Below the pieces are notes generated by a model. It saw nothing but the letters and a program-made list of their open reading frames with translations, was not told the DNA's origin and did not search any database. 64,000 bases of DNA from Blastocatellia bacterium (GTDB lineage Bacteria > Acidobacteriota > Blastocatellia > RBC074), in assembly GCA_031409955.1 (NCBI GenBank), contig JANNYF010000012.1, positions 25,927 to 89,926 on the forward strand, written 5' to 3'. Each line of letters starts with the position of its first letter. Position 1 is the stretch's first letter. Both the position numbers and the translations under genes were made by a program. Shown piece after piece: positions 3,172 to 56,966 of the stretch.

Positions 3172-3234
3172 ATATGCGGTTTGATAGGTGTGATTGGTTT
3201 GCCTTCCAATCCGCACTCCGCATTCTGCACTCCT

Positions 3235-4005: not shown

Positions 4006-4023
4006 CGCTGCAACCGAAAAGCC

Positions 4024-5052: not shown

Positions 5053-5107
5053 GATCACGACCACTCAATCCACAGCATACAAATGTTCGCTTTCAGGAGG
5101 AAAATCT

Positions 5108-11303: not shown

Positions 11304-11743
11304 GACAGTTGTCGCCAGTTATGCGCAAGCCCTACTGATTTTATACCTGCGGGCGTATTTGGAAATTCGATCTTTGCCGTTAGCTCCAGAGGAGCGAGCT
11401 ATTTATAGTAGGAGCGCGCCATTTTACCCAAGCTCCAGAGGAGCGAAATGTGTCCGATGCCGCTCCGATGGAGCTAGACAGTATCTGGCGATACGGTGGC
11501 TATAAAGATTCCGCGCCGCTGGCGCTAATTCCCAAACACGCTCTGAGAGGCATAGTGGTGAGTCAGCTCTGTGCCTCTTGTTTTTCCTCATCCTCACCAG
11601 ATTAACTCTCAGCAAAACTGACGCGCCGCTTTTTTTTCGCTGCGTCGCGGTGTCCCCGTGTCGCCCTTCTATGCTATTCTTGCGCCGCTGGAAACAGTGG
11701 TTGGTCACGCGGTATTCAGAATTCAAAATTAGTGTTCACGGTC

Positions 11744-12682
11744 ATGCCTGAATTTGTCTTCCAATTCGGCTCTTATTTCCCCACTATCGGGTGGAAAGAC
11801 CTGCTCGACATTTGCATCGTCGCGTTTTTGGTGTACGAAGTCTTGCGATTGATTCGCGGAACACGCGCCGTGCAGATGGCTGCCGGGCTGATCGCCCTTG
11901 CGTTTTTGTATCAAGTCTCGCGGTGGTTCGGCCTTGATACCGTGGAATGGGTGTTGCGCAATGCGGTGGTGTATTTGGGCGTGGGGATTATTGTGCTTTT
12001 TCAGCGCGAACTGCGGGCGGCCTTGCTGCATTTCGGCAAAAACTTTCGGCAACCCTTTGTGCGCCGACGTGCCAATGCTCACGCACACAGTTGGTATGAC
12101 GACGTCGTGCAGGCGGCGCTGGATTTAGCGAAAGATAAGATTGGCGCGCTGATCGTCCTTGAGCGCGATGTTGGGTTGAAGACCTACGTCGAAAGCGGCA
12201 TTCGATTGGATGCCCGGTTGACCTACGATTTGCTGGTGACGATTTTCAATACGAATACGCCTTTGCACGATGGCGCGGCAATCATCAGCAAACATCGGCT
12301 GGCAGCAGCGTCCTGCTTCCTGCCCTTGACCCAAGCCCCTTATACGGCACGAAAGCTAGGGGCGCGGCATCGCGCGGCGATTGGCATTACCGAAGACACG
12401 GATGCGTGCGCGGTGGTCGTTTCCGAAGAAACTGGCAAGATATCCTATGCCGTTGGTGGTCGGCTGACGCCCGATCTGGATGCGCCGCGCTTACGCCGTC
12501 TGATTCAACAAGCGCTGGAACCCTGGCATACAGACGAAGAGGCGGAGGCCATCGAAGTCGAAGAACGCGAGCATGAACTAGCCATGCAGAACATTCTGGA
12601 TGAGCGACGGGCCAGCGTCAGAGGCCATCATGAAATTCCCGAACCGTTCAGCGAAAATTTGCCAGAGGAGGTCAAGCCGTGA
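11744..12682 (+). CDS. cdaA: Diadenylate cyclase (c-di-AMP synthase), membrane-anchored CdaA/DacA
   Basis: N-terminal TM helices followed by a DAC domain (HDGAAIISKHRLAAASCFLPLT, LGARHRAAIGITEDTDACAVVVSEETGKISYA). GTG at 11732 is an alternative start. Confidence 0.85.
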   Translation: MPEFVFQFGSYFPTIGWKDLLDICIVAFLVYEVLRLIRGTRAVQMAAGLIALAFLYQVSRWFGLDTVEWVLRNAVVYLGVGIIVLFQRELRAALLHFGKNFRQPFVRRRANAHAHSWYDDVVQAALDLAKDKIGALIVLERDVGLKTYVESGIRLDARLTYDLLVTIFNTNTPLHDGAAIISKHRLAAASCFLPLTQAPYTARKLGARHRAAIGITEDTDACAVVVSEETGKISYAVGGRLTPDLDAPRLRRLIQQALEPWHTDEEAEAIEVEEREHELAMQNILDERRASVRGHHEIPEPFSENLPEEVKP

Positions 12683-15248: not shown

Positions 15249-16679
15249 TTATTTGCTCGCGCTCTGCGATGGTTTCGTTAAGACCTTGCTGTCAACGGTG
15301 TACTCAAACCACGGGATAAACATCTCATCCCAACTCTGCTCGCTCCAATAGACTTCCTTGTTGGGCGCGGGATTGTAGCGGTTCTTGATTGAGTTGTCGT
15401 AATGCGCAACCGCCTGAATCCGGCTTCCGGCGGGAATCTTGAGTGGTTCTTTTAGCTCATAATGCAACTGCCAATTGAAATCGAACTTCGGCACATAGAG
15501 CAAAACCTGCTTGCGACCATCCGGCCAAATCAACGTGTATTTGATGTCTTTGCCGCGCAAGTGCATGTGCGGCGCAAAGGCATACAACGTGATCGCTTCT
15601 TTGATCGGTGTTTCGGCGCTGATTTCCCAGTTGTCTACACGGGGCGGAATGTTCGGAATCCTGCCGCGCACTTTGACTTCTTTGCCGTTGACTGTGCGGG
15701 TCTCTGCTAACTCTTTGCCTTCGATGAAAACATTGTCCGTGACGCCTTTGGTCAGTACTTCGTACTTGGGCGGTTGCTTGGCAAACCAAAGCCCTAAACG
15801 CGAGCGATCTTTCTCCGCACGACCACTCGGTTGATAGTGCATATTGAACTGAACGTACATGCCCGGCAGGATGCGTTTCGCCGTACCTGCGGGATGTTTC
15901 TCAAAGCCCTTGCCCGGCGCTTGTCCGACTAACTTGAATGCGCCGGAACGCGTGAACGAATCCTGACTCTGCGCCACTTCGCGTGTTACGCCTTCACTCA
16001 GTCCACCGGTCTCACGGGCGGATTGGCTGTTGAGTGCCGAAGTGGCTCCATCCGCACGAACGGCTCTGCCATTGACGATCTTTGCGCCTTCCGGCAGCCG
16101 CACGACGTTGGCGATGGAGTGATGCACGACGGCTGGATTGCCGGGGCGAAGTTCGACTTTCTCGACCCATCGTTCTTCATTGAAGGGAAGCGGCACATAG
16201 AAGTTTTGCATCGGCAATTCGCCCTCCGCAGGAACTTCAAAATCAATCGGCATTTCGATGACTACATCTGGTTCGCCGAACGTCCAACCGGGCGTGTAAT
16301 TCGGCATCTTGGGCAAGTCTTTGTCATCGCCTTTTGGCGCGCCTGCGTCTACCCAAGTCGTGATGAGCTTGATCTCTTGTTCGGATAAGCGACGGTCGTT
16401 GCTGAAGTGGGCGGTCGAGATGTTTGGATCAGCAAACCACGGCGGCATCGTCCGTTCGACGACTTCTTCGCGGATGGCTTTGCTCCACGGACGCACTTCG
16501 GCATAAGACGTCAGCGGCATCGGCGCGACTTCGCCGGGGCGATGACAGTTGGCGCATTTGTTGAAGATGATGGGCGCAACGTCTTTGGTGAAGGTCACGC
16601 CAGCGGCTTCATTTTTGTTCACGAACCAAATAGTCGCGGCGCTTAGAACTGCGAACAGAATGATGGACAATCGTTTCAT
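15249..16679 (-). CDS. Fusion protein: N-terminal mono-heme cytochrome c domain plus DBH/PHM-like (copper type II monooxygenase-like) domain
   Basis: RBS ggagg precedes ATG at 16679. Signal peptide. CANCH heme-binding motif. Downstream HH...(about 70 aa)...H...(about 66 aa)...HMH...(about 75 aa)...DEMF spacing mirrors the PHM/DBH CuH (H,H,H) and CuM (H-x-H, Met) sites, with a conserved YDFNWQ. Confidence 0.65.
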
Positions 16680-16690
16680 GGCGTACCTCC

Positions 16691-18007
16691 TTAGCGGCTT
16701 GAACTGCTGGCAACTTGCGGCTGCGCTTTGCGCAAATCCTGTTTGTCGAGCGTGTAATCTACATACCCGATCATCATTTCTTCCCACGTCTGATCGCCCC
16801 AACGAACCGTTGCCGTTGGATCAGGATTGAATTTATTTTTCGGCGAATTGTCGTAATGGGCGACACAAATGAGCTTGCTGCCTTTCGGCACGGCGAGTTC
16901 TTCTTTTAGCACATACGTTAACTGCCAGCCAAAATCATAGCGCGGCACCGACAGAATGACTTTCGACGTGCCATCAGGATAGACGAGCGTGTATTTGAAA
17001 TCTTTGCCGCGCACGTGCATGTGTGGATGCAAACTGTCAACGTGGCTGTCTTCTTTGAAGACCATTTCAGAAATGACTTCGTGATTGTCTGCACCGGGCG
17101 GAATGGCAAAACTGCTTTGCACCGCGCCCGCCGTAATGACACGTTTCTGCACGGGTTCTTTGGCGAAGATTAAGCCAATGCTGGTGCGGTCTTTGCCCAC
17201 TTCGCCGTTCGTGGTGTAGTGAATCTGGAAGATCAGCACCGAACCTTTCTTGACGAGTTTGGCTTGACCGTTGCGCAGTTCCAGCGGCGCTTCACCCGGT
17301 GCCCATCCGACCAGACGGCCATCTGAATCGGCGGGACGTTCACTTGAACTTCGACGAACTGAAGCGAGGTCGGCGGGATTGATTTCACCGGGCTTCGGCA
17401 AATCGCCTTGATCCGGGTAACGCACGCTTACGATGACGTGATGCAAATGCGCGCGATCACCCTGTCGAATCTCAGCGAATTGCACATACTTGTCTTCGGT
17501 GAAGTTCGTCGGCACCGCGAAATATTTGTACGGAATGACGCCTGTGACGGGAATGTTGAATTCGGTCGGCATCGTCAGCACGACGTCTGGTTGCCCGATT
17601 TGCCAGCCCGTTGTGTACGTTGGATTGGGCGGCATATCTTTCGGCTCACCTTCTTTCGCGCCGCCCTCAACCCAGGCCACAATCGTATCAATCTCTTTTT
17701 GTGACAGGCGCGCATTGTTGGAAAATTCACCGTGATTGGGATCGGCGAACCACGGCGGCATGACGCGGGAAACGACCTGTTCACGGATGGATCGTGCCCA
17801 CGGGCGCACCTCTTTGTAGTTCATGAAAGACATTGGCGCGACTTCGCCGGGACGATGGCACATCTGGCAATTTTTTTGAATGATCGGTGCCACATCTTTG
17901 GTGAACGTCACAGTTGCGGCAGACGTTTGCCGCAACAAGACAGATGATAATCCGATGCCGAGCATTGCAATCGCGCCCAACACACACAGGAACAAAGTAC
18001 GTTTCAT
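16691..18007 (-). CDS. Fusion protein: cytochrome c domain plus DBH/PHM-like copper monooxygenase-like domain (tandem paralog)
   Basis: CQMCH heme motif. [17 protein letters not shown] and TWEEMM motifs at the same spacing as the downstream paralog. 11-nt gap to the next gene. Confidence 0.65.
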
Positions 18008-27914: not shown

Positions 27915-29678
27915 CTATGGAGTCCTCGCGGACAGCACAACTCGCAACCCGATATTGTTGAGGCTGGTGACGCCGGGCTGAATAACGGAGCGGCTGGCGG
28001 AGTGGCAATAAATAGCGCTGCGGCCCCACGCCCCGCCCCGCACTACCCGCTTACTATTATCGTCTCCCGTCACCCAGGCGCTTCCGTCACTCGGCGCACC
28101 GGCATAATTTTCGTGCCACATATCTTCGCACCACTCCGCCACGTTTCCATGCATGTCATATAACCCAAATCCATTCGCCACCCCCAGACTTCCCACTGAC
28201 TTGGTGCGAAAACTATCCTTTGCGGCTTGCTGGTTGAGATAGATCCCATTGTAATTCTCAATCTGAGTGCTGAGCGTATCGCCAAAGGCAAACGCAGTTG
28301 TCGTCCCCGCGCGTGCGGCGTATTCCCATTCGGCTTCGGTGGGCAGCCGATAATTGTGTCCGGTTCGCGCGCTCAGTTTGCGGCAGAACTCCTGTGCCTC
28401 TTCCCAACTCACTTGTTCTACGGGCAGATCCATATCGCCTTTGAAATGGGCGGGATTGTTGCCCATGATTGCTTGCCACTGCGCCTGTGTCACCTCATAG
28501 CTGCCCATCGCAAACCCGCTGACGCGCACTTGATGCTGTGGCTGGTTATTAGTGAACCACCCGAGTTGCGCGTATTTGTCGTAGCGTTTGGCTTCTGCAA
28601 AAGCCTTTTGTGCTGCGCTGTTGGTCGAACCCATCTGAAATGTCCCGCCCGGAATTTCCACCATCGGTAATTTCACGCCGTTGCCCAAATCTTCGACGAA
28701 GCCCCAGCCTTGGTCTTGCCGTTGGTTCACGACGTTTCCATTCACCTCTACGCTGGCGGTCACAAAGCTCATGGCTGCGAGTGGCACGCCTGCCACACTC
28801 ATCCGCACCGTTGGCTTCGTGACGGGCGGCGCAGTCGCAGTTACGGGCGTGGGTATGATTACTGGCGGTGGTGGCATAGCACTATTGGGCGGAAGGAAGT
28901 AAAAATCTTCGCCTTCAACCGAGGTGTATTCATACGGCACTTGCTGACCGCCCGATTTGCTGCGCACGCTGGTGCGGGTGCGGCGGAAGACGGATTCCAA
29001 CGTCAGTCCCGGTGTCTTCAGGTTCGTCAACAGTTCTTGCGTGAAGAGTCCGTTGCGGCCTGCGCCATCGCTGGCGACATTATTCTCGGCGGTAGCATAC
29101 GCGACCAGGGTTCCGGTGGGTGCGCCGCGCGTTATGGCTAACCCGCGTGACTCCGTGCGGAAGCTGCGCGCAAACGGATTGTTGCGGCAGGCATCGAGAA
29201 TCACGATGTTGAGCTTGTTGCGTGCATCCTCCATTTGTGCCAGTACGAAATTCACGCTGACGGATTCATCTTCGACTTCGGTGTCTTTGGTGATCTCTGC
29301 GCCCACGGGAATCATGAAATTTGTGTTGTTCACCTGCACACCGTGCCCGGCGAAGTAGAACAATCCGACGCCACCGTTGCGAATCTTCTCGCCAAACTGA
29401 CGGATCAACTCGCGCATTTGTTTCCGATTTTGGTCCGCCCCGTGCAGCACTTCAAACCCGGCGGTACGCAATGTGGCCGCGATGTCGTGCGCATCGTTGA
29501 CGGGATTCGTCAGTGAGCCTTGCGCATACGCGCCGTTACCGATGACGAGCGCGATGCGTCGTTCGTTCGGGGTTTGTCGTATCACGTTGAGACTCCGATC
29601 CTGCTGGGCGTGAGAAATCATCTGTGGCATCAGCGCGATGACACAAAATAGGGTGAGAACCAATCTGCCAAGATACAT
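27915..29678 (-). CDS. Secreted caspase-like (peptidase C14) domain protein fused to a formylglycine-generating-enzyme (FGE/SUMF1) type domain
   Basis: RBS ggaga precedes ATG at 29678. Signal peptide. IALVIGNGAYA...HG...FYFAGHG...DACRN caspase His/Cys dyad context. C-terminal RLPTEAEWEYAARAG...GLYDMHGNVAEWCEDMW...VVRGGAW FGE-sulfatase motifs. Confidence 0.8.
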   Translation of the reverse strand: MYLGRLVLTLFCVIALMPQMISHAQQDRSLNVIRQTPNERRIALVIGNGAYAQGSLTNPVNDAHDIAATLRTAGFEVLHGADQNRKQMRELIRQFGEKIRNGGVGLFYFAGHGVQVNNTNFMIPVGAEITKDTEVEDESVSVNFVLAQMEDARNKLNIVILDACRNNPFARSFRTESRGLAITRGAPTGTLVAYATAENNVASDGAGRNGLFTQELLTNLKTPGLTLESVFRRTRTSVRSKSGGQQVPYEYTSVEGEDFYFLPPNSAMPPPPVIIPTPVTATAPPVTKPTVRMSVAGVPLAAMSFVTASVEVNGNVVNQRQDQGWGFVEDLGNGVKLPMVEIPGGTFQMGSTNSAAQKAFAEAKRYDKYAQLGWFTNNQPQHQVRVSGFAMGSYEVTQAQWQAIMGNNPAHFKGDMDLPVEQVSWEEAQEFCRKLSARTGHNYRLPTEAEWEYAARAGTTTAFAFGDTLSTQIENYNGIYLNQQAAKDSFRTKSVGSLGVANGFGLYDMHGNVAEWCEDMWHENYAGAPSDGSAWVTGDDNSKRVVRGGAWGRSAIYCHSASRSVIQPGVTSLNNIGLRVVLSARTP

Positions 29679-29910
29679 TGTTGCAATCTCCTGATGGAAC
29701 CAAGTATTGCTGAGCGATGCGCATTTTACACATCTCTCAAAATCAATGCACAGGAAAATTGGAACTCGGTACGGTACGAGGAGCGGTGGCAACTGGATAC
29801 TCTAGGTCTCTCAACTCGCTACCGCTCGCCGTACTCTACCGATTCTTCCGAAGTTTGCTACAATGCGCCCTCTTGCAATCCAAATATAGCAACGATTGAG
29901 GAACTCATCC

Positions 29911-31338
29911 ATGAAAACACTTGTGGCATTTTTACTACTTACTCTGACACTCAATGCTCTGTGCATCGGCGTCTTCGCGCAGGATGCCACCACGCTCAAA
30001 GGCGATTGGAGCGGCGTGCTGGACGCAGGCGCGGCAAAGCTGAAATTGATTCTGCACTTCACGCCAGAAGCCGATGGCACGTGGCGCGGCACGATGGACA
30101 GCCCCGATCAAGCGGCGAACGGATTGAAGATTGATACCATCACGGTGGAAGGCCAGACCTTGAAATTCACCATGCGAGCCATCGCTGCTTCGTATGAAGG
30201 TACGCTGAACGGCGGCGAAATTGCGGGCAAGTTTACGCAAAGTGGAATGACGTTCCCGCTCAATTTCAAACGCCCGACGGCGGCGGACTCTGCGCCACCG
30301 AAACGACCGCAGACGCCACAACTCCCATATCCCTACAATGAAGAAGAGGTCACGTTTGAGAACCCCGCCGCGAACGTCAAATTGGCGGGAACGCTGACCA
30401 CGCCGCGCACGAAAGCGCCGTTTCCAGTGGTCGTGTTGATTACCGGCTCCGGCCCACAAAATCGCAATGAAGAATTGCTGGGGCATCAGCCGTTCCTGGT
30501 GCTGAGCGATCATTTGACGCGGGCGGGCATTGCGGTGCTGCGCTTTGATGATCGCGGAGTGGGGAAGTCTACGGGCAAATTCGGCACGGCGACGAGCGCG
30601 GATTTTGCAACCGATGTGTTGGCAGCCGTTGCGTATTTGAAAACGCGCCCAGAAATCAATCCGAAGAAGATCGGCTTGGTCGGTCACAGCGAGGGTGGCT
30701 TGATTGCGCCGATGTGTGCGGTGCAATCAAAGGACGTCGCGTTCATCGTGATGATGGCGGGGCCGGGCGTACCGGGCGATGAAATTCTGTACGAACAAGG
30801 CGCGTTGATTATGCGCGCCGAAGGAACGCCGGAGGCTACGATTGCCGAGAACCGGAAGACGCAGGAAAAAATGTTTGCGATTATCAAAGCAGAGAATGAC
30901 GCGGCAGGCGCGGAAAAGAAATTGATGGAACTTGTTGCGACGGTCGTTGCCACTGCTCCCGACGCACAAAAGAAAACCGTCGAAGCATCGCTGAACGCGC
31001 AAGTCAAAACTGTCAACGCGCCCTGGTTTCGCTACTTCCTGACGTTCGATCCGCGCCCGACGTTGCGCCAGGTGAAAGTGCCTGTTCTCGCCATCAACGG
31101 CGAACTGGATTTGCAAGTCTCGCCCCAACAAAACCTGCCGGAAATTGCCAAAGCCTTGAAAGCGGCGGGCAATAAAAAATTCCAAACCGTTGCGTTACCC
31201 AAGCTCAATCACCTGTTTCAGACCACCCAAACCGGAGCCTTTTCTGAATACGCCAAGCTCGAAGAAACGATGTCGCCGACCGCCTTAACCTTGATGTCGG
31301 ATTGGATTGCGAAGCAAACGGGCGTGAAGAAAAAGTAG
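29911..31338 (+). CDS. Secreted alpha/beta hydrolase
   Basis: RBS gaggaa. Signal peptide. GHSEGG (GxSxG) nucleophile elbow with distal Asp/His. Confidence 0.8.
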   Translation: MKTLVAFLLLTLTLNALCIGVFAQDATTLKGDWSGVLDAGAAKLKLILHFTPEADGTWRGTMDSPDQAANGLKIDTITVEGQTLKFTMRAIAASYEGTLNGGEIAGKFTQSGMTFPLNFKRPTAADSAPPKRPQTPQLPYPYNEEEVTFENPAANVKLAGTLTTPRTKAPFPVVVLITGSGPQNRNEELLGHQPFLVLSDHLTRAGIAVLRFDDRGVGKSTGKFGTATSADFATDVLAAVAYLKTRPEINPKKIGLVGHSEGGLIAPMCAVQSKDVAFIVMMAGPGVPGDEILYEQGALIMRAEGTPEATIAENRKTQEKMFAIIKAENDAAGAEKKLMELVATVVATAPDAQKKTVEASLNAQVKTVNAPWFRYFLTFDPRPTLRQVKVPVLAINGELDLQVSPQQNLPEIAKALKAAGNKKFQTVALPKLNHLFQTTQTGAFSEYAKLEETMSPTALTLMSDWIAKQTGVKKK

Positions 31339-31530: not shown

Positions 31531-34500
31531 CTAAAACTCGAATCTGCCCACCAACTGCACGATGCGCGGCGAGAAGGTGCCGCTGAATCGTCCAAACGTC
31601 GCGCTGTTGATGTCGAACATCGCGCCTGTCCCAGCTTGCGATGCGCCGCTCAAACTGAAGTTCGCGCGGTTCAGCACATTGAAGGCTTCGACGCGCAATT
31701 GCAGCCGCGTCGTTTCGGTCATCTGAATGTTCTTGATGATCGAAGCGTCCCAATTCAAATAGAGCGGGCCATTGATGAATGCGCGTTCCAACGTTCCGGT
31801 TTGACCGGGGCCGTTATTGAAGAACGCTTGTCCGGCGAACGCCGTCGAGCCTAAACCTTCTGCCGCCCGGCCTGTGCCAGCACAAGTCGTTTGATTCAGG
31901 TTGATGACCGACGGGTTGATGTAATACACGCCGCACGCCGTTTTGTGGATGCCGATCAAATCCTTGATCTGACTCTTCGACAGGTTAGTTTGCGGGGTTT
32001 GCCGACCCGAACGCGAGACGCGGTTGAGCGTGCCGCGCACGTCTACGAACGTGAGCGGCGCACCCGTGGCGATGTTCATGATCGAAGTCAGTTGGAACCC
32101 GCCAAAGACACGATTGATGGTTCCGCTGTGATTCAACCATTTCTTGCCATTGCCGAACGGTAATTCGTAAATCGCGTTGACGTTGAAGACGTGCGTTTGA
32201 TCGTAATCGGCGCGCGAATATTCCAACTCAGGCCGCGCGTTATCCAGGTTCGTATTGAACTTGAACTGATCCGTACCCGTCGCATTCGTCAGCACTTTTT
32301 GGAACGTGTAGTTGGTTTGGAAATACAAGCCATTCGAGAACCGTTTGCGCAACTCAATCTGCAATGAGTTGTAGTTGTACTTCCCGCCGTTTTCCAGAAT
32401 CGAGATCGTACCCGCGTTTTCATTGGCTCGCAGCGGCACTGTGCCCTGTAAACCATTTTGCACATAAGTCAGCAACAAGGTTTGTGGATCGCCTGCGCGA
32501 ATCGTATTCGCAATCGTTGCGTTCGTGAGCAAACCGCCCGCCGCAAACTTCGGAAAGACAGTCAAGGTCTGGCACCCTGCTGTCGTGCAGCCTGCATTGC
32601 CGGTCAACAGAAGATTGGCACGGGCGCGATTGAAATCGGCCAGAAAGCCGTTGGTATTCATGTCAAAGTTGTTGATGTCCAACCCGCGCGGCAGATTGTT
32701 GCTTTGCCCGCCGACATAGCGCACTTCGAGCGCGGTTTGGAATCCCAACTCGCGTTGAATGCCAAAGCTGTATTCGTTCGACCGCGCAATTTGATAGTTC
32801 GGATCAATCGCAAAGACTGCGCCAAAGTTGGCGGCAATCTGGTTGTTCTGCAAAAACGTGCGCGGCAATGCAAACGCAGGCGCGTTGATGGTCGGCACAC
32901 TGCCCAGCCGTGCGTTGAGGTTGGCAAGCGTGACGCCTGTGCTGAGTCCGGCGTTGGTTTGTTGCGAGGAATCCTGTGACCGCAAAATTTCATCGTTCAC
33001 ATAACTCATGCGGAAGCCACCGCGCACGACGGTTTTGCCGCCACTACCGAAAACACTGCTCAGGAATTTGTTTTGGAAATTCGGCGAGTATGCAAAGCCC
33101 AACACCGGAGCAAAATTGTTTTTGTCTGTCTTGTGCAGTTTGTTGTTGCCGTACCCGTTGATGAAATCCACTTTGCCGTTGGGATCAAGCACGGCTTGCA
33201 GCACGGTTTGCCCAGGCGCGATGTACGGCTCCAACGCCAGTCCCTGCTTTTCGCGCAGCGGCGTGTAGAGTTCGTAGCGCAAGCCCATCGTCAACGTCAG
33301 ACGCGGCGTCGCTCGCCATTGATCGGACAAATAGAGCGAATGCACATCGAACGCATAATCGAACGCGGCTGCCGCGCCGGACGAATAGCCAGACGTGCGC
33401 GTCGCTGCATTGAAGGTTTGCGTGCCTGTGCCGACGATGCCGCCGAGCAAGGCTAACAAACCATTCGCGGTTCCCAATTGTGCCGTGCTGATGCCGCCTG
33501 TGAAATTGCCTGCGATAAAGCTCGGCGTGTTCGTGTTCGTGCCTAACGTGAAGCGCGGGACGGTATCGAACTTCGCTGATGTGAAGTCTGTGACGAATTG
33601 CGATTGCCCGCCAAAGCGCAGCGCGTGATTGCCCCATTGACGTTCGGCGTTGTCCTGGAGGTTGTAATTGGCGGTGTCGCGGCCTTGCTCTTGCTGATTG
33701 ACTTCGGGATTGTTGATGAGCGGGAGCGTCAAATAAAATGCGGGTTCCGCTTTGACGCGAGCGAAGAACGGATCGCTCAAAAACGCGCCGCTGCGCAATT
33801 CGTTGGTGAACGTTGCGCTCGGCGTCCAGCGCCACGCAACCGAGGTGAATTTGCGCGTCGAAGGCTGCACAATCGTCGGCGTGGATAAGTATCCCGAAGG
33901 GCTGTCCACGTCCGGGCGATCATTCACCTTTTCGTTCGTGTAACTCAGCACGCCGCTGACCGTGTGTTTGTCGCTGACTTCGTAATCGAAGCGACCCGTG
34001 TATTTGTCGGTGTCGGTATTGCTGCGTTGATTGAAGCGATAGCCCGTCGTGTTGCGTTGATCGCCACGATCTACGGCATTGCCAACCGCAGGGACGTTCG
34101 CCAGAATGCGGCTGCTGACAATGGGGTCAATGCCGGGCAGCCCCGCGTTGCCGAGCAATGTAAACAGATTCACAGTGCGCAAAACGGGGCCACCATTGGC
34201 TGCCGTCGTGTTGTCGAGGTAGGTGAAATTTCCGAGCCGTGCGCTCGGCGTCAGAATCGTGCGGACTTGCGTGGATTGCGTGCGTGTTCGCAAGCCTTCG
34301 TAAAAGCCAAAGAAAAACAATTTGTTCTTGATGATTGGGCCGCTGATTTTGCCGCCGAATTGATTGCGATTGAGAAAGGCTTTCGCTGTCCCGCTCGCGT
34401 TATTGAAATAGCGATTCGCCGCGAACTCCGAATTGCGATTGTAGAGTTGTGCGCTGCCGTGAAAAGCGTTCTGTCCGCGCGGCGTCACGAATTGGACTTG

Positions 34501-35178
34501 CGATGCGCCGTAGCCTAATTCTGCTCCCGCATTCTGCGTCGTCAACGTGAATTCGCTGACGTCATCTACGTTCGGGCGTTCGACCGAAAAGCTCGAAGCG
34601 TTGGCGCGAATGTGGTTGTCCTGAATGTTGATGCCGTCGCGTGTGATGTTCGTGAAGGTCGGGCGCTGACCATTGATTGATGTGCCTTGCGCGCCGTTGG
34701 ACGCGGTTCCGGCTTGCAGCAAAATCAAGCTTGTCGGGTCGCGCCCGTTGAGCGGCAGTTCGACGATTTGGCGCGGGCTGACGGTGTTGCTGATTTGCGG
34801 GTTCGTGGCGTTGAGCAAATCCGCGCCCGCCGTGATGGTCACGCTTTCCGCCGCCAGACCAATTTCCAGCCCCACGTTCAGCGAGTATTCCTGCCCAATA
34901 TCAATCTTGACGTTTTTCGCGTTGAAGGTTTTGAAGCCGTTCACGGTGACGGTGACGTTGTACGCGCCGGGATCAAGTTGCGGCAGGAGGAACGCGCCTT
35001 CGCCGTTCGACGTAATGGTGCGTTCTTTGCCCGTTTGATTGTCCGTGACCTTCACGGTTGCGCCGGGCAACACGCCGTCCGGCCCTGACACCGTGCCGAT
35101 CAAGCGACCTGTGTTAGACTGCGCAATGGCTGCTGCAGTGAGCAACAGCAGCATTGCAAAGGAGATGATTTTCTTCAT
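31531..35178 (-). CDS. TonB-dependent receptor-like OM protein with CarboxypepD_reg N-terminal domain
   Basis: Signal peptide, GTVSGPDGVLPGATVKVTDNQTGKERTITSNGEGAFLLPQLDPGAYNVTVTVNGFK, about 1215 aa, C-terminal F. Confidence 0.85.
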   Translation of the reverse strand: MKKIISFAMLLLLTAAAIAQSNTGRLIGTVSGPDGVLPGATVKVTDNQTGKERTITSNGEGAFLLPQLDPGAYNVTVTVNGFKTFNAKNVKIDIGQEYSLNVGLEIGLAAESVTITAGADLLNATNPQISNTVSPRQIVELPLNGRDPTSLILLQAGTASNGAQGTSINGQRPTFTNITRDGINIQDNHIRANASSFSVERPNVDDVSEFTLTTQNAGAELGYGASQVQFVTPRGQNAFHGSAQLYNRNSEFAANRYFNNASGTAKAFLNRNQFGGKISGPIIKNKLFFFGFYEGLRTRTQSTQVRTILTPSARLGNFTYLDNTTAANGGPVLRTVNLFTLLGNAGLPGIDPIVSSRILANVPAVGNAVDRGDQRNTTGYRFNQRSNTDTDKYTGRFDYEVSDKHTVSGVLSYTNEKVNDRPDVDSPSGYLSTPTIVQPSTRKFTSVAWRWTPSATFTNELRSGAFLSDPFFARVKAEPAFYLTLPLINNPEVNQQEQGRDTANYNLQDNAERQWGNHALRFGGQSQFVTDFTSAKFDTVPRFTLGTNTNTPSFIAGNFTGGISTAQLGTANGLLALLGGIVGTGTQTFNAATRTSGYSSGAAAAFDYAFDVHSLYLSDQWRATPRLTLTMGLRYELYTPLREKQGLALEPYIAPGQTVLQAVLDPNGKVDFINGYGNNKLHKTDKNNFAPVLGFAYSPNFQNKFLSSVFGSGGKTVVRGGFRMSYVNDEILRSQDSSQQTNAGLSTGVTLANLNARLGSVPTINAPAFALPRTFLQNNQIAANFGAVFAIDPNYQIARSNEYSFGIQRELGFQTALEVRYVGGQSNNLPRGLDINNFDMNTNGFLADFNRARANLLLTGNAGCTTAGCQTLTVFPKFAAGGLLTNATIANTIRAGDPQTLLLTYVQNGLQGTVPLRANENAGTISILENGGKYNYNSLQIELRKRFSNGLYFQTNYTFQKVLTNATGTDQFKFNTNLDNARPELEYSRADYDQTHVFNVNAIYELPFGNGKKWLNHSGTINRVFGGFQLTSIMNIATGAPLTFVDVRGTLNRVSRSGRQTPQTNLSKSQIKDLIGIHKTACGVYYINPSVINLNQTTCAGTGRAAEGLGSTAFAGQAFFNNGPGQTGTLERAFINGPLYLNWDASIIKNIQMTETTRLQLRVEAFNVLNRANFSLSGASQAGTGAMFDINSATFGRFSGTFSPRIVQLVGRFEF

Positions 35179-35350: not shown

Positions 35351-38300
35351 TTAGAACTTCAGCCGCAGCGCGAATTGAATCAGACGCGGATTGCTGCTGA
35401 AGACCAGATCGGGTTGATTGAATTGCGCCCGCCCGACGGTGTTGACGTTGCCCACCGCCTGCGTGGCAATCGGGACGACGCTGTTCGGCGTGCCGGACAC
35501 GTATTGCGGATGATTCAAGCCATTGATGAAATCTGCGCGGAATTGCAGCTTCTTCGTTTCCGTCACGGCAAAGTCTTTCGAGAGCGAAAAATCAATGTTG
35601 TTGATGGCAGGCAATGCCAGCGTGTTGCGCCCCGCCGTCGCACGCGCACCCAAGCCTGCTTGAATGTATTGCGCGTTCGGATTGGTGGCTAAGTAGCCCA
35701 CTGTTTTGCCTGCCGTATTCGTCAGCGCCGTCACCAAACTGGAAGTGTTTTTCACGCCATTGGTGTTGATGATCGAACGATCTCCGGCGGCGTCGCCATT
35801 CAGGTTGGCGTCAACGCCGCTCAGCACCGTGACGTGTTCGCCGGATTCATAACTGAACGTTCCCGCGAAGCTGAATCCACCGAACAACGACCGCGCCAGG
35901 CGATGACTGCTCTTGGCAAAAAACGGAAGGTCGTAGATGCCAGAGACGGCGAGACGATGACGATGATCGAGAATTGAATTGGCCTTCTCCGCCCGCATGT
36001 TTTGGAAGTCTTGCGCCCGGCGCGGGGCCAAGACTGTGCTGAAAACCTCGGCGGTCGAATCGTCAATGTTGTGGCTCCAGGTGTAGGCCGCATTCGCCAA
36101 AAATCCGCCTGTGAATCGTCGCGTCAAGGACGAAGAAAATGCGTGATAGGTCGAGCTGCCATTCGAGACAAACGCCACCACGTTCGCGCCATTGAAACCC
36201 GCATTGGCATAAGCCGGCACAAAGCGCGAGCGCGGGTTGATCGTGTCTTGCAACGTGACTGTCAACCTGTCTAAATCTGCTTGCGCAGGTCTCGACAAGT
36301 ACGTGGGAAGGAAGATCGTGTCGGTAGTTTTGGGCTGCACGTTCAGGCGATTCTGCGTGGGCAAGTGAACGCCGCGTGTGCCGAGATAGCGCGTTTCCAG
36401 CGACCAGTTGGTTAAGAACTGGCGCTGAATGCTCAGGCTGTATGACATCGCGTAGGGAACTTGTTGATTGTCTACCCACGCGCTGGTCGCGGCGCGTGCG
36501 GCTGCCGCTGAAGTTGCGGTGGCTGGCACGACGTTGTGAATCCCGCCATTCGCCAGGAAGTTGTTGATGTCAGGCGTCGCCGGGATGTTGACTGTGACCT
36601 GCGCTTGCGGCGGACTCGACAAAATATAGAGGTTGTCTACGATCACATCGTAGGCCATCGAGAAGCCCGCGCGAATCGAACTCTTGCCGCCGGAACCAAA
36701 CAAGAAACCCAGTGGGCCGGAGTCATAATTCGGCGCATATACCAAGCCGATACGCGGCCCGAAATTCTTCTTCTGCGCGGTGGGTGCGCCAAATTCAATC
36801 AGTCCCGGCACGTTGGAAATGGCGTTCAGTTTTTGCAAGCTCGCGCCGAACGGCACTTGCTGATAGACGTAGTTCACGCCCGCATTCAGCGTCAGGTTCG
36901 GACGCATCCGCCATTCGTCTTGCCCAAAACCGAAGAACAGAATTTGGTCGCCGTAATACTTCGACGCGCCCACGTTGCGCTCGGCTAAAAAGTCAGGATT
37001 CAAATCGCGCAGGAAGCGATCTGTCGTGTTGTATTGATAATCGCCGCGCTCGCGTTGCACGAAGGTTTGCGGCGAAATGCTCTTGCGCACATCCGCGCCA
37101 AACTTCAACGAGTGATTGCCCGCGAGATAGGAAATGTTGTTGATGAGTTGATAGTTGTTTTCGGTGTTGTACTGCGGCCCGTTTGGATCGGGGCCAATAT
37201 CAATGCCCAAATCTTTCAGCCCGACATTCGGAAATGAGTCAAACCCAGCGATGGGGAATTTGGTATCGGGGATCGAAACGTCATTTACAAAGCGACGATA
37301 GGACAGGCGCATTTCATACGTCAGCTTCGGCGTGAAGGTGTGCAGGAAGGTGTAGGAAAACAAACGACCATCGGTCGGGTTCAGGAAGAAGAACGCAGGC
37401 AGCGTGGCATTGTTGTCAATCGCGCGCAGACGGTTGTACGTGAAGCGACCGCGATGCTGTGTTTTCTCGCTTTGCGTGTAATCCAGATTCAGCACGAAGT
37501 TGCGCTGATTCGTCCAATTCGGCGCGTCGAACGAAATATTGCCGACCGGAATGTTGACGCCATTCACGGCAATCGTTCCGGCATCATTGGTCGGCGCGGT
37601 TGGCACATATTGTTTGAAGAGCGCGAGGTTGGGGGCAGAGAGTCCCGCGATGCGATCCAGCGCCGCGAAGCCTGCGGCAGTGGGCGAAGTCAGACCCGCC
37701 GGAGCGGCTGCGTTGCCGATGCCCAAACCTTCGTAGCTGACAAAAAAGAACAGGCGATCTTTGCCGTTGATGATCGGGCTGCCGCCTGTGCCGAAGCGCG
37801 GCAGATGCAGCGGGCCGCCGATGTTGCCGCCGTAGCGAGCGAAATCGTAACGCGGCATGAACGTCGTGCCGGGCGCATTCTGTTCGCGCACGACGCCCGC
37901 GTTTTTCTGCGTGGTATCAAGCGCGTTTAGGTAACGATTGCGGAAGAAGCTGTACAACGTGCCGTGATATTCATTGCCACCGCTTTTGGATGCGACGATG
38001 AATTGGCCGCCCGTCGAACGCGCAAACTCGGCAGCGAATTGATTGGTCAAAATTGAAAACTCGGAAACTGTTTCCGGCGACACATAAACGGCGGGGCCGG
38101 AGATGTCTTTGCGGTTGTTATCAATGCCATCCACGACAAAGTTATTGTTGCGCGGACGTTGCCCACCGACCGAACCGCCCGTGCCTAAACCGAGGCCGCC
38201 GCTGCCCGTGACGTTCGGCGCTAACAAGGCCAGGTTGTAAATACCGGAACTTGCGGAGTTCGCCGTGGTAATAGACGTTTGAGGAAGTTCGACGACTTGC

Positions 38301-38734
38301 CGGGAATTGAACCCTTTCGACAAATTCGTGGTGGTGGTTTGGATTAGCTCTGCACCTTCCGCCGAGATTTCGACGGTTTCTGTTTGAATGCCGACTTGTA
38401 ACGCGACGGGCACGTCGGTCGTTTGATTCAAGCCCACGCGGACATCGCTCAAGGTCAGCTTTTTGAAATTGGCTGCCTCGATGGTGATCTGGTAATCGCC
38501 CGCCAACAAGTTATTGAAGCGGAACTCGCCATCGCCGCTAGATTCGGCGGTCACGGTATGGCTGGTCTTGCGATCCGTGATGCTGATTTTGGCGCCGGGG
38601 ACAATCGCGCCGCTGGGGTCTTTCACGATGCCGCGCACATTGCCGGTGGTTTGCTGTGCCAGCACCGGGCAGAGAAGAGAGATGAGTAAGAGAAGTAAGG
38701 TTGTGACTTGCGTCATTGGCGATAGTTTTTTCAC
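35351..38734 (-). CDS. TonB-dependent receptor-like OM protein with CarboxypepD_reg N-terminal domain
   Basis: RBS aaggag. Signal peptide. GIVKDPSGAIVPGAKISITDRKTSHTVTAESSGDGEFRFNNLLAGDYQITIEAANFK. About 1127 aa. Confidence 0.85.
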   Translation of the reverse strand: MKKLSPMTQVTTLLLLLISLLCPVLAQQTTGNVRGIVKDPSGAIVPGAKISITDRKTSHTVTAESSGDGEFRFNNLLAGDYQITIEAANFKKLTLSDVRVGLNQTTDVPVALQVGIQTETVEISAEGAELIQTTTTNLSKGFNSRQVVELPQTSITTANSASSGIYNLALLAPNVTGSGGLGLGTGGSVGGQRPRNNNFVVDGIDNNRKDISGPAVYVSPETVSEFSILTNQFAAEFARSTGGQFIVASKSGGNEYHGTLYSFFRNRYLNALDTTQKNAGVVREQNAPGTTFMPRYDFARYGGNIGGPLHLPRFGTGGSPIINGKDRLFFFVSYEGLGIGNAAAPAGLTSPTAAGFAALDRIAGLSAPNLALFKQYVPTAPTNDAGTIAVNGVNIPVGNISFDAPNWTNQRNFVLNLDYTQSEKTQHRGRFTYNRLRAIDNNATLPAFFFLNPTDGRLFSYTFLHTFTPKLTYEMRLSYRRFVNDVSIPDTKFPIAGFDSFPNVGLKDLGIDIGPDPNGPQYNTENNYQLINNISYLAGNHSLKFGADVRKSISPQTFVQRERGDYQYNTTDRFLRDLNPDFLAERNVGASKYYGDQILFFGFGQDEWRMRPNLTLNAGVNYVYQQVPFGASLQKLNAISNVPGLIEFGAPTAQKKNFGPRIGLVYAPNYDSGPLGFLFGSGGKSSIRAGFSMAYDVIVDNLYILSSPPQAQVTVNIPATPDINNFLANGGIHNVVPATATSAAAARAATSAWVDNQQVPYAMSYSLSIQRQFLTNWSLETRYLGTRGVHLPTQNRLNVQPKTTDTIFLPTYLSRPAQADLDRLTVTLQDTINPRSRFVPAYANAGFNGANVVAFVSNGSSTYHAFSSSLTRRFTGGFLANAAYTWSHNIDDSTAEVFSTVLAPRRAQDFQNMRAEKANSILDHRHRLAVSGIYDLPFFAKSSHRLARSLFGGFSFAGTFSYESGEHVTVLSGVDANLNGDAAGDRSIINTNGVKNTSSLVTALTNTAGKTVGYLATNPNAQYIQAGLGARATAGRNTLALPAINNIDFSLSKDFAVTETKKLQFRADFINGLNHPQYVSGTPNSVVPIATQAVGNVNTVGRAQFNQPDLVFSSNPRLIQFALRLKF

Positions 38735-42694: not shown

Positions 42695-44794
42695 TTACTG
42701 CTCGCGTCTGAACGTATAGCGCAGCAAGACAATATGATTTAGTGAAGAATGGCCGGAGGATTTGGAGGCGATATATTCAACCAGCAGGTTGGGGCGCAAC
42801 CGCCAGCCAATCCCGACATCGGTGAAATTGTCGATAAACCGTTCTTGCGTGCGACCATTCGGAACGAATTTGCCATAGCTATTGAGCAGCCGGCCAAACC
42901 GATCTGGAAACAGGTTCTCATCCGTCGTGCGTCGTTGCCAACTCGTCAGCGATGAGACGCTGATGAACATCTGCCGCCAGACATCCGTTTGCGCCGCCAT
43001 GTGCAAAGACGTGAAGCGCAGCCGCTGTTGTTTGTCTTCGATCTGATTGCCTGTTGCATCTTCAAACAACCGATCATGAATGTGGATTGATCCGATTGCG
43101 ACATCCACCCCAAACACCGTGCGCGGGCGTAGCGCGTAGCCGAGACCGCCGCTGATGGCAGTGCGGTGAATGTGTTCACGTTCGTTGGCATTCACGATGG
43201 AAAAGCGGCGGAGTTGTTCGGTCAAGCCGACGTGCAACCACGAAGCATCTACGCCATAAAACAATTTGCGCGTGACCAGTCCGCGCAATCGCAGTCCCAC
43301 TTCTTTTGTCTGCGCGCTAAACCGCACGGCATCCGGTGGCAGCGCCGAACCATTGAACCGGCGGGCTTGGTCTCGATCTTCGGCGCGTGTCACGCCGTGG
43401 CGGTAGAAAACGCCAAGCTTCTGGCTTGTGCCAAATTCGCGCGTGAGGCCGAAACGAAGGCGAGAGCGTTCGACCCAGGCGCGCGCTGTTAACTCTTCAA
43501 TAGATTTTGCTCCCAGCACATTCGTCAACGTCGTCAGACTTTGCAGGTTACTCACGCCGCTGGTGTGATCTACGCTAATGCCGACGCTGGTGCGACCGCT
43601 TTTGCCAAACTGCCGCGCAGCTAAGAGCGACGCCGAAAAGTTCGTTACGTCGGTACTCGCCGCGCCCGTGCTGACGCCCGGAATGCCGGTGGGATAGGCG
43701 GGCGTGACTGCGCCGGTAATCGGCGCGCTCAAAAATGTGCCGAGCGTGCTGTGCGCAGCGCCAACGCTCCCGCCCAATACCGTGCGCTTTTCTGCATTCG
43801 TGCGAAGCGGGGTGAAGAAGGTGGTTTGAAACAGCAACCCGCTGTCATTCGGAGCCGTGAGGTCAGAGCCAAAGACCAGCGAATTCTCGGCCTTCATATT
43901 GGCTTTGCTCCACGAGGGCAGGAGCGAAAAGCGCCCTTCCCTCTGACGAAACTCGGTGGCATACGCGGGGTTTTCGAGGCTGTCAAAATGCGAATCGGGA
44001 AACGCCAGGAAGCGCAAGAAGGGCGGGCTTTCGCCCGGTTCAACGACGCTGTCAATGTAGCGTTCGTAATCGCCCGCCAGATTGCGCCGCACATCGTTGG
44101 GCGTGTTCGCACTGCTCACGCCGTTCGCTCCGGCAGCATTGCTGTTGCGATGGCTCTCATCGCGGCTGCCACTGGGGCTGCGATCTCCGATTTCGCTGCC
44201 CGGCCCCGTCACGAAAAAGCGAATATCACCAGTGAGGGGAACGATCAAACCGCGTCCCGGTTGCACCATTGCTCGTTGCGCATTCGCCACGCTCACGACT
44301 TCGACTAAACCTTCATACACGATCACCTCCGTCTCACTCGTTGCCTCGACCGCAACGCTGAATTCTGTTCCCCGCACAAGAATAGAAGCCGAAGGACTAT
44401 TGACGCGATACGGATTCGGTTTGTTGCCGTAATGGTTGATTTTGACGCGGACGCGTCCCACCAGAACTTGCAATAATTCCCGCAGCGTGGGGGCATTCAG
44501 ATAATCCCGAATCACGATGCGGGAGTTCGGCTGCACCGTCACCACGCTGCCGTCGCTCAACTGAATCACGAGGCGCCCGTTGCCGGTCGTGATTTCGTCA
44601 CCCGGTTGCAGCACATCGCCTTTCGCTAAAGAAAAACTGCGTTGCTGGCTGAAGCGCAGCGCGCCGCCGCTCGTGCTGGCAATGCGCGCTTCGACCGCTT
44701 GTGCCTGCACGGAGAGGCAACCGAAGGGCGGAGCGGCGCAGCAAAGCACCGCCATCAGCATTCGTCTCAGCCAGCGCAGATCAGCACTCGTCAT
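42695..44794 (-). CDS. FecR-domain protein with C-terminal outer-membrane beta-barrel-like region
   Basis: Signal peptide. FecR-like fold ([37 protein letters not shown]...VRGTEFSV). Long beta-strand-rich C-terminus ending in an aromatic residue. ATGA overlap with the upstream response-regulator gene. Confidence 0.65.
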
Positions 44795-46229
44795 TCCTCG
44801 TCCTCCCCATTCTCAACGAAGTCAAAGCCCTCGCCTTCCGGTTCCACCATTTGATTGAGATTATGCCGCGCGATCAGGCGCTGCACAGTGCGCCGATTCA
44901 AGCCCAGCAACGTCGCCGCGTGCTGGCGATTGCCTGCGGTGTGCGTCAACGCGGCTACCAAATACCGTCGTTGTAATTCTTCCATCGTGGGCCAATCCGC
45001 AGCCAGTTGCCGCAATGCCTCCGCCGGGGCTGCTGTCTGAACCGGACTGATATGAGACGGCAAGCACAGCGGCGTAATCATCCCATCTGTAGTCAGCGCC
45101 GCCGCTCGTGTCAGCGCGTTTTCCAATTCCCGCACGTTGCCGGGGAATGACCATTGACACAGCAAATCCAGTGCATCGCGGGAAATATGCAAAGGTTTGG
45201 TTTCGCGGCTCAGGCGGTGCAGAAAAAATTGCACCAGCAGTTCGACATCGCCCGTGCGTTCGCGTAGCGGTGGCAGGTGGATCGTCAAAACGCTTAGGCG
45301 GTAATACAGATCAGCACGGAACGATTTCTGTTCCGCCAACTCGCGCATATCCTGATTGCTTGCGCCGATCACGCGCACATTTACGCGGCGTGTCTGCGTC
45401 GCGCCGACGCGTCGCACTTCGCCCGATTGCAGCACGCGTAACAAACTCGCCTGAAAAGACGAACTGGTCGAGGCGAGTTCATCCAGAAACAATGTCCCAC
45501 CGTCTGCCGCTTCAAATAGGCCGATGCGATCCGTGTTCGCGCCTGTGAACGCGCCGCGCATGTGGCCGAATAATTCTGCTTCCAACAGCGTGTCGGTTAA
45601 GCCTGAACAATTGACGGCGATGAAAGGCTTTTGTTTACGTGGGCTGAAATCGTGGATGGCGCGGGCGGTGACTTCTTTGCCCGTGCCGGATTCGCCGGTA
45701 ATTAAACGGTCGCATCCGTGCGCGCGGCCTGTGCTACTAATTTGTAGACCTGCACCATTGCCGCGCTACGCCCCACAAAACCACTGCGCGCGGAATCGGG
45801 CTGTGCATCTGGCGACGGTTGTGCATCCACTTCTTGCTGCGCATTTATGTAGCGGTGCAATAATGTGGTCAAGGCTTCGACTTCAAAGGGTTTGGCAATG
45901 AAATCGGTGGCACCTTCGCCCACCGATTGGACGGCCAAATCTACGGAGCCTTGCGCGGTCATCAAAATAACGGGGATGTCGCTGGAGAGTTGGCGCAGTT
46001 CTTGCAACAACGTTAGCCCATCGCCATCCGGCATATAGACATCCGTGATGATGCCATCGAACTTGATCGTTTGTGCGATTGCTAAGGCTTCGCGTCCGCT
46101 CCGTGCGCAAGTGATCTGAAACCCGCTCAGGGTGAGGCTGGTTTCCAGCATCAGCCGAATGAGCCGATCATCGTCTACGACCAGAATGTGCAGTTGTTTC
46201 TTGGACATGGTTATGAGTATCTGATTCAT
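44791..46229 (-). pseudogene. Sigma-54-dependent response regulator (NtrC family: REC + AAA+ sigma54-activator + Fis-HTH) interrupted by a single-nucleotide frameshift
   Basis: REC domain (ILVVDDD...DGIITDVYMPDGDG...) runs into ...AARTDATV then a TAA at 45702-45704. The -1 frame continues [35 protein letters not shown]...[15 protein letters not shown]...HTH in frame with ORF 44791-45585. One missing T in a T-run (GTTTAATT vs GTTTTAATT) would restore the frame. Confidence 0.7.
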
Positions 46230-56878: not shown

Positions 56879-56879
56879 A

Positions 56880-56960
56880 CGGTGGTCGGTGGTTGGTGAT
56901 TGGTGGCTGGTCAGTCTTTTACCGACCGCTAACCACCGACCACCGACCACCATTTCAGGA
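56880..56960. repeat. Family C hairpin repeat (GGTCGGTGG units) between ADOP permease genes
   Basis: ggtggtcggtggttggtgattggtggctggtcag ... ctaaccaccgaccaccgaccacc. Same family as 15148-15246. Confidence 0.5.
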
Positions 56961-56966
56961 GAATCT

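Follow-up and report, generated by a model that had tools for sequence, protein, structure and literature searches.

We analyzed a 64,000-nucleotide stretch of DNA (hereafter the window) from contig JANNYF010000012.1 of a Blastocatellia bacterium, in which a gene on the minus strand at positions 27915-29678 encodes a 587 amino acid protein that joins a caspase-like Peptidase_C14 domain to a formylglycine-generating enzyme (FGE) domain. The open reading frame (ORF) listing and the translation agree with these coordinates, and the protein, referred to below as the C14-FGE protein, consists of four parts: a signal-peptide-like N-terminus, the Peptidase_C14 domain, a disordered Pro-rich linker, and a complete FGE-sulfatase fold (Table 1). 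The longest ORF at this site (27915-29792) starts from an upstream TTG at 29792; we favor the ATG at 29678 as the start codon because a Shine-Dalgarno-like AGGAG sits 9 nucleotides before it. A protein 100% identical to the one encoded in the window is present in NCBI (P0001), and homology searches returned 7943 homologues at E ≤ 1e-10, with both domains present in nearly all of the best 120.

A preliminary description of this locus, made from the sequence alone, had proposed a secreted fusion of these two domains through a Pro-rich linker, and our analysis bears out this architecture. Both domains score far above their curated Pfam cut-offs, and the three motifs that had been singled out are all present (RLPTEAEWEYAARAG, residues 444-458; GNVAEWCEDMW, residues 511-521; and VVRGGAW, residues 545-551). 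An AlphaFold2 model built from 117 homologues (mean predicted local distance difference test score, pLDDT, of 88.7) contains two confidently folded domains, recovering both the caspase fold and the FGE fold. The linker is also real: it is predicted to be disordered, with pLDDT values below 50 at residues 274-289, and it differs in length and sequence between orthologues.

Export of the C14-FGE protein

The leader of the protein comprises MYLGR, a 12-residue hydrophobic core (Kyte-Doolittle score = 3.03) and a putative SHA/QQ cleavage site, with no lipobox. A hydrophobic leader was found in 97 of the 101 homologues with an assessable N-terminus, and the structural model places a helix at residues 3-15, followed by a low-confidence stretch at residues 17-33. 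On the basis of this putative signal peptide, which was judged by hand from hydrophobicity, the protein looks Sec-exported, in line with the secretion suggested by the preliminary description. An internal transmembrane segment considered at residues 294-312 was rejected, as this region has a Kyte-Doolittle score of only 1.48 and forms part of a β extension in the model.

The caspase-like protease domain

The N-terminal domain was assigned to Peptidase_C14 (PF00656) with 133.5 bits against a cut-off of 21.4 (E = 1.3e-38). By sequence, its closest relative of solved structure is the paracaspase MALT1 (E = 1.6e-13), and a Foldseek comparison of the model with the MALT1 caspase domain (3v4o_A) identified the same caspase-hemoglobinase fold (E = 9e-16, target TM score = 0.79, identity of about 24%). 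Residues His112 (FAGHG) and Cys164 (LDACR) align with the YAGHG and LDMCR motifs of MALT1, and the catalytic His and Cys are kept in 110/110 and 113/117 homologues, respectively. The His/Cys dyad is thus intact in the alignment, so that on the evidence of its sequence the protein is a C14 protease rather than a pseudo-caspase, with proteolysis itself being a prediction.

In addition, Asp62 and Asp162 align with two MALT1 aspartates (within PLVDV and LDMC), and each is conserved in at least 90% of the homologues; the alignment covered these two of the three acidic residues. We take the two MALT1 aspartates to be the S1-pocket residues D365 and D462. These putative S1 residues suggest that the protease probably cuts after Arg or Lys, as ortho-, meta- and paracaspases do. 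The domain shares with MALT1 and the bacterial orthocaspases (clan CD, family C14) the fold, the AGHG and DxCR motifs and the two aligned acidic residues of the putative S1 pocket; it differs from MALT1 in that the protein has no death or Ig domains and looks exported.

A non-catalytic, TvpA-type FGE module

The C-terminal domain matched FGE-sulfatase (PF03781) with 168 bits against a cut-off of 23.3 (E = 4e-49), covering model positions 5-254 of 255, that is, a complete domain. Among proteins of known structure, the best sequence match was TvpA (4e-32), followed by PvdO (2e-28) and human FGE (4.5e-15), and Foldseek returned PvdO, TvpA (E = 2e-17, TM score = 0.67) and human and bacterial FGE (target TM scores of 0.59-0.66). 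TvpA of Treponema denticola (PDB 2y3c) resembles the window module in being a non-enzymatic FGE-type C-type-lectin fold with a variable C-terminal surface. TvpA differs from the window protein in that it is a lipoprotein, has no protease domain and is diversified by a cis-encoded diversity-generating retroelement (DGR). The model of the window protein also contains an all-β N-terminal extension of the module (strands at residues 301-310, 316-330 and 336-342), a feature that, according to Kaur et al. (2020, PMC7159879), sets TvpA-like FGS domains apart.

Formylglycine-generating enzymes of this fold bind Cu(I) through two cysteines. In a HMMER alignment to human FGE (2aft/1y1e), Arg553 occupies the position of Cys336 and only Cys558 matches Cys341. 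Across the 117 homologues, position 553 is occupied by S/N/D/T/Y/F and is never dominated by Cys, while position 558 is Cys in 73/117. Because the Cys336 equivalent is Arg553, the two-cysteine Cu(I) site cannot form. Consistent with this loss, here and across the family, all NCBIfam enzyme models scored far below their cut-offs (PvdO, 134.9 vs. 500; GldK, 91 vs. 350; SenA, 48.7 vs. 420; EgtB, 43 vs. 360), and a Pfam scan of 33 ORFs of the window, which covered all but a few small ORFs, returned no Sulfatase family. Taken together, these comparisons indicate that the FGE half is a non-enzymatic, TvpA-type C-type-lectin variant and not a formylglycine-generating enzyme. This supports the earlier proposal that the FGE fold acts here as a ligand-binding module rather than as an oxidase, one Cu-binding Cys being gone and TvpA and PvdO being the nearest structures. 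In agreement with such a role, the FGS domain has been described as a lectin-fold sensor of invaders (PMC7159879, PMC8195603), and Tsi3, another protein with the FGE fold, functions solely in protein binding (bioRxiv 10.1101/2021.05.21.445229). It should be noted that Tsi3 proteins are single-domain proteins encoded in vgrG-tse3-tsi3 modules and have no protease fusion, whereas the window gene has no type VI secretion system context.

A hypervariable stretch with the codon footprint of a DGR

Since TvpA was the best structural match, the C-terminus was examined for a variable region. Among the 12 closest homologues, mean identity is 82% in the caspase domain but 33% at residues 552-576, a hypervariable segment flanked by conserved RGG(S/A)W and GFRVV frames. 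Across the 117 homologues, the variable positions (552-554, 556-557, 562, 564-566 and about 569-576) draw on the residues S/N/D/Y/F/T/G/I. Of the 24 codons of the variable stretch in the window gene, 23 end in a pyrimidine (NNY), compared with 51% elsewhere in the gene (binomial P = 2.3e-6). This bias lies at the codon level and not at the amino acid level, as it includes every 4- and 6-fold-degenerate codon of the stretch. The same NNY bias, in a weaker form, was found in most orthologues.

For calibration, reference genomes supplied 80 related loci, and a total of 89 sequences (the window and 88 loci, the latter designated below by L numbers) were screened with a template-repeat detector. 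Template/variable-region pairs with adenine-specific mismatches were identified in L021 (19/20), L040 (15/15), L065 (15/15) and L069 (24/25), and also in L029. The verified templates encode RGGSW-NNN-P-RN-CRSA-N-R-N.N...NNN-GFRL, and their Asn (AAC) codons coincide with the hypervariable positions of the family of the window protein. L021 is a canonical DGR, in which the C14-FGE target is followed by bAvd, RVT_1 and the template. In L065, the C14-FGE variable region (11599-11724) is followed about 250 nucleotides downstream by the template repeat (11980-12105), and all 15 mismatches between the two are adenine-only. The three flanking ORFs of L065 scanned with Pfam encode a transketolase, Uma2 and an NAD-binding/DUF2867 protein, none of them a reverse transcriptase (RT), and this locus looks like a template whose RT is encoded elsewhere.

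The C14-FGE architecture is thus a true DGR target elsewhere, in agreement with the orthocaspase domains reported at the N-termini of DGR variable proteins in cyanobacteria (Vallota-Eastman et al., 2020, PMC7517822), and the codon usage of the window gene suggests that its variable stretch keeps the footprint of a DGR origin. The preliminary description had considered the FGE partner to be sensor-like, which agrees with a binding module, but had missed the TvpA-type DGR scaffold, the hypervariable patch and the NNY footprint.

Exchange of FGE modules between related genes

Comparison of the closest relatives showed that the two halves of the gene differ in their degree of divergence. L001 and L088 are near-isogenic: they have 12 flanking proteins in synteny, of which 11 share 94-100% identity and one (Uma2) 81%; within the C14-FGE gene itself (L001, 10001-11785; L088, 10001-11716), the caspase half is 96.9% identical, whereas the FGE half is only 41.6% identical. 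The window gene gives a second example. Its FGE DNA (27936-28781) is 90-98% identical over 700-900 nucleotides to that of one gene of L005 (3159-4925; hereafter L005a), while the caspase DNA of the two genes is only about 50-60% identical. Compared with the syntenic locus L004, the window has flanks of 82-91% identity and a caspase half of 80% identity, but an FGE half of 55%. These comparisons indicate that diversity in this clade arises by recombinational swap of whole FGE modules. The combination of a conserved protease and a binding half with fast turnover fits a receptor under diversifying selection.

Two further features of the related loci were observed. L005, a single metagenomic contig, carries tandem C14-FGE paralogues (3159-4925 and 5078-6763), which would be a ready substrate for module exchange. 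In several relatives, an IS200-like (Y1_Tnp) transposase gene or fragment lies directly 3' of the C14-FGE gene (Table 1), with none in the window. The Y1_Tnp genes of L004, L006 and L007 are 90-94% identical to one another, although their C14-FGE genes are much more diverged, and these transposase genes may be linked to a recombination hot spot.

Search for a DGR acting on the window gene

No second copy of any part of the gene was found in the 64-kb window (blastn, word size 7), where an adenine-aware degenerate pattern also matched only the gene itself, and neither RVT_1 nor bAvd was found among the 33 scanned window ORFs. Likewise, neither a cis template nor an RT within 10 kb of the gene was found in seven close relatives. 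A template-compatible pattern with fixed scaffold codons had no match in genome, metagenome and viral contig collections; as the window gene itself was among the sequences left unmatched, its source genome is not in these collections, and this negative result for a trans-acting DGR does not cover it. A lone 23S_rRNA_IVP gene of L006 (57-437, minus strand), encoding a four-helix-bundle protein with weak similarity to bAvd, lies about 10 kb from the C14-FGE gene with no adjacent RT, and is probably unrelated to a DGR.

We also looked for ongoing hypermutation among near-identical genes, which was mostly absent. Within clusters of 90% identity, the variable stretch is mostly invariant (2 of 90 variable columns in cluster c1 and 1 of 72 in cluster c5). 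A single clear replacement of the variable region distinguishes L088 from L089; it changes all three codon positions, including a synonymous TGC to TGT, and so breaks the adenine-only rule. Because two copies of one template could not differ in this way, we regard this change as a recombination patch. Between the window gene and L005a, the 90-nucleotide stretch from RGG onward contains four differences, all of them non-synonymous and at codon positions 1-2, but this excess of non-synonymous changes does not reach significance (Fisher p = 0.38). A shared template for these two variable regions was considered and rejected, since the similarity actually extends over a shared FGE module of about 700-900 nucleotides. 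On balance, the evidence leans against ongoing hypermutation in the clade.

Genomic context

The C14-FGE gene appears monocistronic. Its neighbors encode a nitronate monooxygenase, a dipeptidyl peptidase IV (DPP-IV), a pyrroloquinoline quinone dehydrogenase, TonB-type barrels and, divergently transcribed, an α/β-hydrolase (29896-31338). A comparison of neighborhoods showed that the genes beside the C14-FGE gene vary between the relatives compared, with no partner gene conserved among them. Two small ORFs adjacent to the window gene had no match in Pfam or PADLOC, and PADLOC returned only a generic caspase match for the locus, leaving the α/β-hydrolase unrecognized. The conserved downstream ORFs of the relatives were considered as candidate effectors and rejected, as they correspond to the IS200-like Y1_Tnp transposase genes.

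Elsewhere in the window, three tandem ORFs of 806-844 amino acids are located at 54431-61910, and the two that were scanned encode MacB/FtsX-type permeases. Together with the three TonB-type barrel genes listed in Table 1, these ORFs support an origin from Acidobacteria/Blastocatellia, which agrees with the source names attached to homologues. An NtrC-type sigma-54 activator appears to be split between two ORFs on the minus strand (44791-45585 and 45702-46229), one of which contains the receiver domain, while the other part starts at position 66 of the Sigma54_activat model and misses the Walker A part; this suggests a frameshift, a pseudogene or an assembly error. The split activator adjoins genes for a CHASE2-PAS histidine kinase (46345-48789) and a FecR-domain protein (42695-44794). 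Two further ORFs, at 5042-7363 (plus strand, 773 amino acids) and 15249-16802 (minus strand, 517 amino acids), matched no Pfam family at E ≤ 1e-5.

Table 1. Features of the C14-FGE gene, the window and related loci (window positions unless a related locus is named).
Feature	Position	Strand	Basis
Complete C14-FGE gene, including the TAG stop at 27915-27917	27915-29678	minus	ORF listing, translation, Pfam
Shine-Dalgarno-like AGGAG, 9 nt upstream of the ATG at 29678	29688-29692	minus	Read from sequence
Signal-peptide-like leader, residues 1-24	29607-29678	minus	Hydrophobicity scan; leader kept in orthologues
Peptidase_C14 domain, residues 40-252 (His112, 29343-29345; Cys164, 29187-29189)	28923-29561	minus	Pfam, MALT1 alignment, Foldseek
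Pro-rich interdomain linker, residues ~262-292	28803-28895	minus	Sequence; model; orthologues
All-β N-terminal extension of the FGE module, residues ~300-338	28665-28781	minus	Model; kept in orthologues
FGE-sulfatase/C-type-lectin-fold domain, predicted non-catalytic type, residues 339-581	27936-28664	minus	Pfam, PDB matches, Foldseek
DGR-variable-region-like stretch, residues 547-577, frame RGGAW ... C-H-S-A ... R ... IGLR	27948-28040	minus	Orthologue identity, residue spectrum, codons, templates
Three very large CarboxypepD_reg + OMP_b-brl_4 TonB-type outer-membrane barrel genes	7443-11219 (+); 31531-35178 (-); 35351-38734 (-)		
IS200-like Y1_Tnp genes of related loci	L004 12069-12608; L006 12218-12754; L007 2281-2919; L088 11744-12004 (minus); L089 3774-4034 (minus)		

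Discussion

We consider it probable that the C14-FGE protein is a stand-alone exported C14 protease tethered to a non-enzymatic TvpA-type binding module that docks on a strain-variable ligand, with the modules being renewed by recombination. According to this model, a clan-CD C14 caspase-like protease that cleaves after Arg or Lys would be exported by the Sec pathway and linked by its flexible Pro-rich tether to a TvpA-type C-type-lectin/FGE-fold binding module. The last ~30 residues of this module (547-577) would form a hypervariable ligand-binding surface, as in DGR variable proteins, and through the module the protease would attach to a ligand that varies between strains and is located in the periplasm, at the cell surface or extracellularly. 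The attachment could bring the protease to its substrate, or it could activate the enzyme by clustering. In this Blastocatellia-like lineage, new binding specificities would come from caspase genes exchanging entire FGE modules by recombination. As for the biological role, we favor a function in conflict with phages or competitors over one in nutrition, because of the pattern of module turnover and the precedents of FGS sensors, of Tsi3 and of DGR targets, some of which are predicted to be secreted (PMC10907252).

Several points weigh against this model. Ligand, substrate and localization are all predictions, and the signal peptide in particular was assigned by inspection of hydrophobicity. 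The verified DGR-target C14-FGE proteins are cytoplasmic and distant (23-28% identical in the caspase domain), which makes any transfer of function from them indirect. The divergence of the modules could partly reflect relaxed constraint and not selection for new specificities, and the retention of Cys558 in 73/117 homologues means that some thiol chemistry may still be formally possible.

Among the alternatives, we find it highly improbable that the C-terminal domain generates formylglycine or catalyzes a related oxidation, which would make the protein a bifunctional enzyme. The FGE fold is complete, the Cys341 equivalent is kept and NCBI names homologues as 'SUMF1/EgtB/PvdO family nonheme iron enzyme', but an Arg at a position that is hypervariable in the family leaves no two-cysteine Cu(I) site, the enzyme-specific models fall far below their cut-offs with no sulfatase among the 33 scanned ORFs, and the nearest structural relative, TvpA, is non-enzymatic. 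The preliminary description had also raised a programmed-death or regulated-proteolysis effector, a suggestion without contextual support, since no effector or partner gene is conserved beside the C14-FGE gene and the match to the model of EACC1-associated caspases is below its cut-off. In its most explicit form, the protein would belong to a death module that is switched on by proteolysis, like those in which a caspase is combined with an α/β-hydrolase, EACC1 or Pepco, and its zymogen substrate would be the adjacent α/β-hydrolase. Caspases paired with α/β-hydrolases are a described defense arrangement, and such proteases can carry FGE sensors (PMC12642450, PMC7159879). The hydrolase gene does adjoin the C14-FGE gene in both the window and L004, and the protein weakly matches the model of EACC1-associated caspases (NF047832); this match, however, reaches only 70.5 bits against a cut-off of 140, and a hydrolase homologue is present at only 1 of 18 loci with a caspase-domain match, namely the syntenic sister L004. 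Moreover, the hydrolase is a 480 amino acid protein of the S9/S15/S33 type that is divergently transcribed and has what appears to be its own hydrophobic N-terminal leader, whereas the characterized partner is a cytoplasmic zymogen of about 33 kDa (PMC12642450). Considering also that PADLOC is silent on the hydrolase, that the small adjacent ORFs match no family, and that a cytoplasmic death role does not fit a partnerless and apparently exported protein, this explanation is very unlikely.

A purely nutritional role, in which the lectin-fold module would anchor an exported protease on polymeric food substrates without any part in conflict, is a less remote alternative that we nonetheless consider unlikely. 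Exported peptidases and uptake functions abound in the surroundings of the gene (DPP-IV, the S9/S33 α/β-hydrolase and three CarboxypepD_reg TonB-type barrels), and no defense-system partners are present, PADLOC giving only the generic caspase match. Against this, binding modules are replaced by divergent ones even between nearly identical genomes whose protease halves are still 97% identical, and the variable patch is antibody-like in its Ser/Asn/Asp/Tyr spectrum, a pattern that fits a fast-changing biotic ligand better than a bulk substrate. Caspase-like C14 enzymes are, in addition, site-specific processing proteases and not bulk degraders. We are similarly doubtful that the gene is an active target of a remote DGR, with RT, Avd and template located elsewhere in the genome and hypermutating residues 552-576 at present. 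The TvpA-like scaffold and a very clean NNY bias (23/24), which suggests little decay since templating, would be expected in this case. Remote targets and trans-acting DGRs have been documented (PMC10907252, PMC7159879), L065 has a template with no RT among its scanned flanking ORFs, and the four differences between the window and L005a are all non-synonymous and at codon positions 1-2. This last excess is not significant, however, and the 28-34 kb to each side of the gene, like the sequence within 10 kb of its counterparts in the seven close relatives, yielded no template, RT or Avd; the variable stretch is usually invariant within clusters of 90% identity, and the one clear change, between L088 and L089, breaks the adenine-only rule.

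The architecture itself is neither new nor rare. Asplund-Samuelsson et al. (2012, PMC3501461) already listed fusions of C14 and FGE-sulfatase domains for 33 of 671 prokaryotic metacaspases, and the same survey noted N-terminal hydrophobic helices as possible signal peptides. These 'metacaspase-FGE-sulfatase' proteins have the same two Pfam domains in the same order and a conserved His/Cys dyad; the survey took the FGE domain to be an enzyme working with the protease, whereas in the window protein it is without one catalytic cysteine and appears to be of the TvpA type. To our knowledge, no member of this class has been characterized experimentally. The preliminary description was aware of such fusions but missed how old and widespread the architecture is (PMC3501461; 7943 homologues in our search).

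A close parallel is provided by the orthocaspase DGR variable proteins (PMC7517822; L021 and L065), which have the same domain order, the RGGSW...CRSA.R...GFR scaffold and the TvpA-like β extension. These proteins are 41-48% identical to the window protein in the FGE domain and 23-28% in the caspase domain; they have an adenine-specific template (L021 also bAvd and RT) and no signal peptide, whereas neither a template nor an RT was found in the 64 kb around the window gene, the product of which looks exported. Published work already links such FGE domains to the lectin fold and to DGRs and describes their fusion to orthocaspases, so that only two points are mildly new here, the swapping of modules and a clean NNY footprint that is not accompanied by a retroelement, and knowledge of the C14-FGE class as a whole is left unchanged. 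More speculatively, the lineage could be an extracytoplasmic counterpart of the cytoplasmic DGR-diversified sensor-proteases, a surveillance protease of the periplasm or the cell surface that catches foreign proteins such as phage parts or rival toxins with its hypervariable lectin-fold receptor and either cleaves them or triggers envelope proteolysis. Its receptors would then be renewed by cassette exchange between strains or paralogues, possibly with the help of a trans-acting DGR, and not by a cis retroelement. We offer this scenario as a long shot.

The near-isogenic loci L001 and L088, with their swapped modules, represent natural experiments for mapping specificity. If the exported, module-swapping receptor-protease that we favor is the correct explanation, the name 'SUMF1/EgtB/PvdO family nonheme iron enzyme' would be misleading for thousands of proteins, which would be variable receptors and not enzymes. 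The Blastocatellia-type genes would then constitute a simple, single-gene system in which to study the targeting of a bacterial caspase-like protease outside the cytoplasm, and the continued diversification of a DGR-type binding scaffold by module exchange once the retroelement has been lost.

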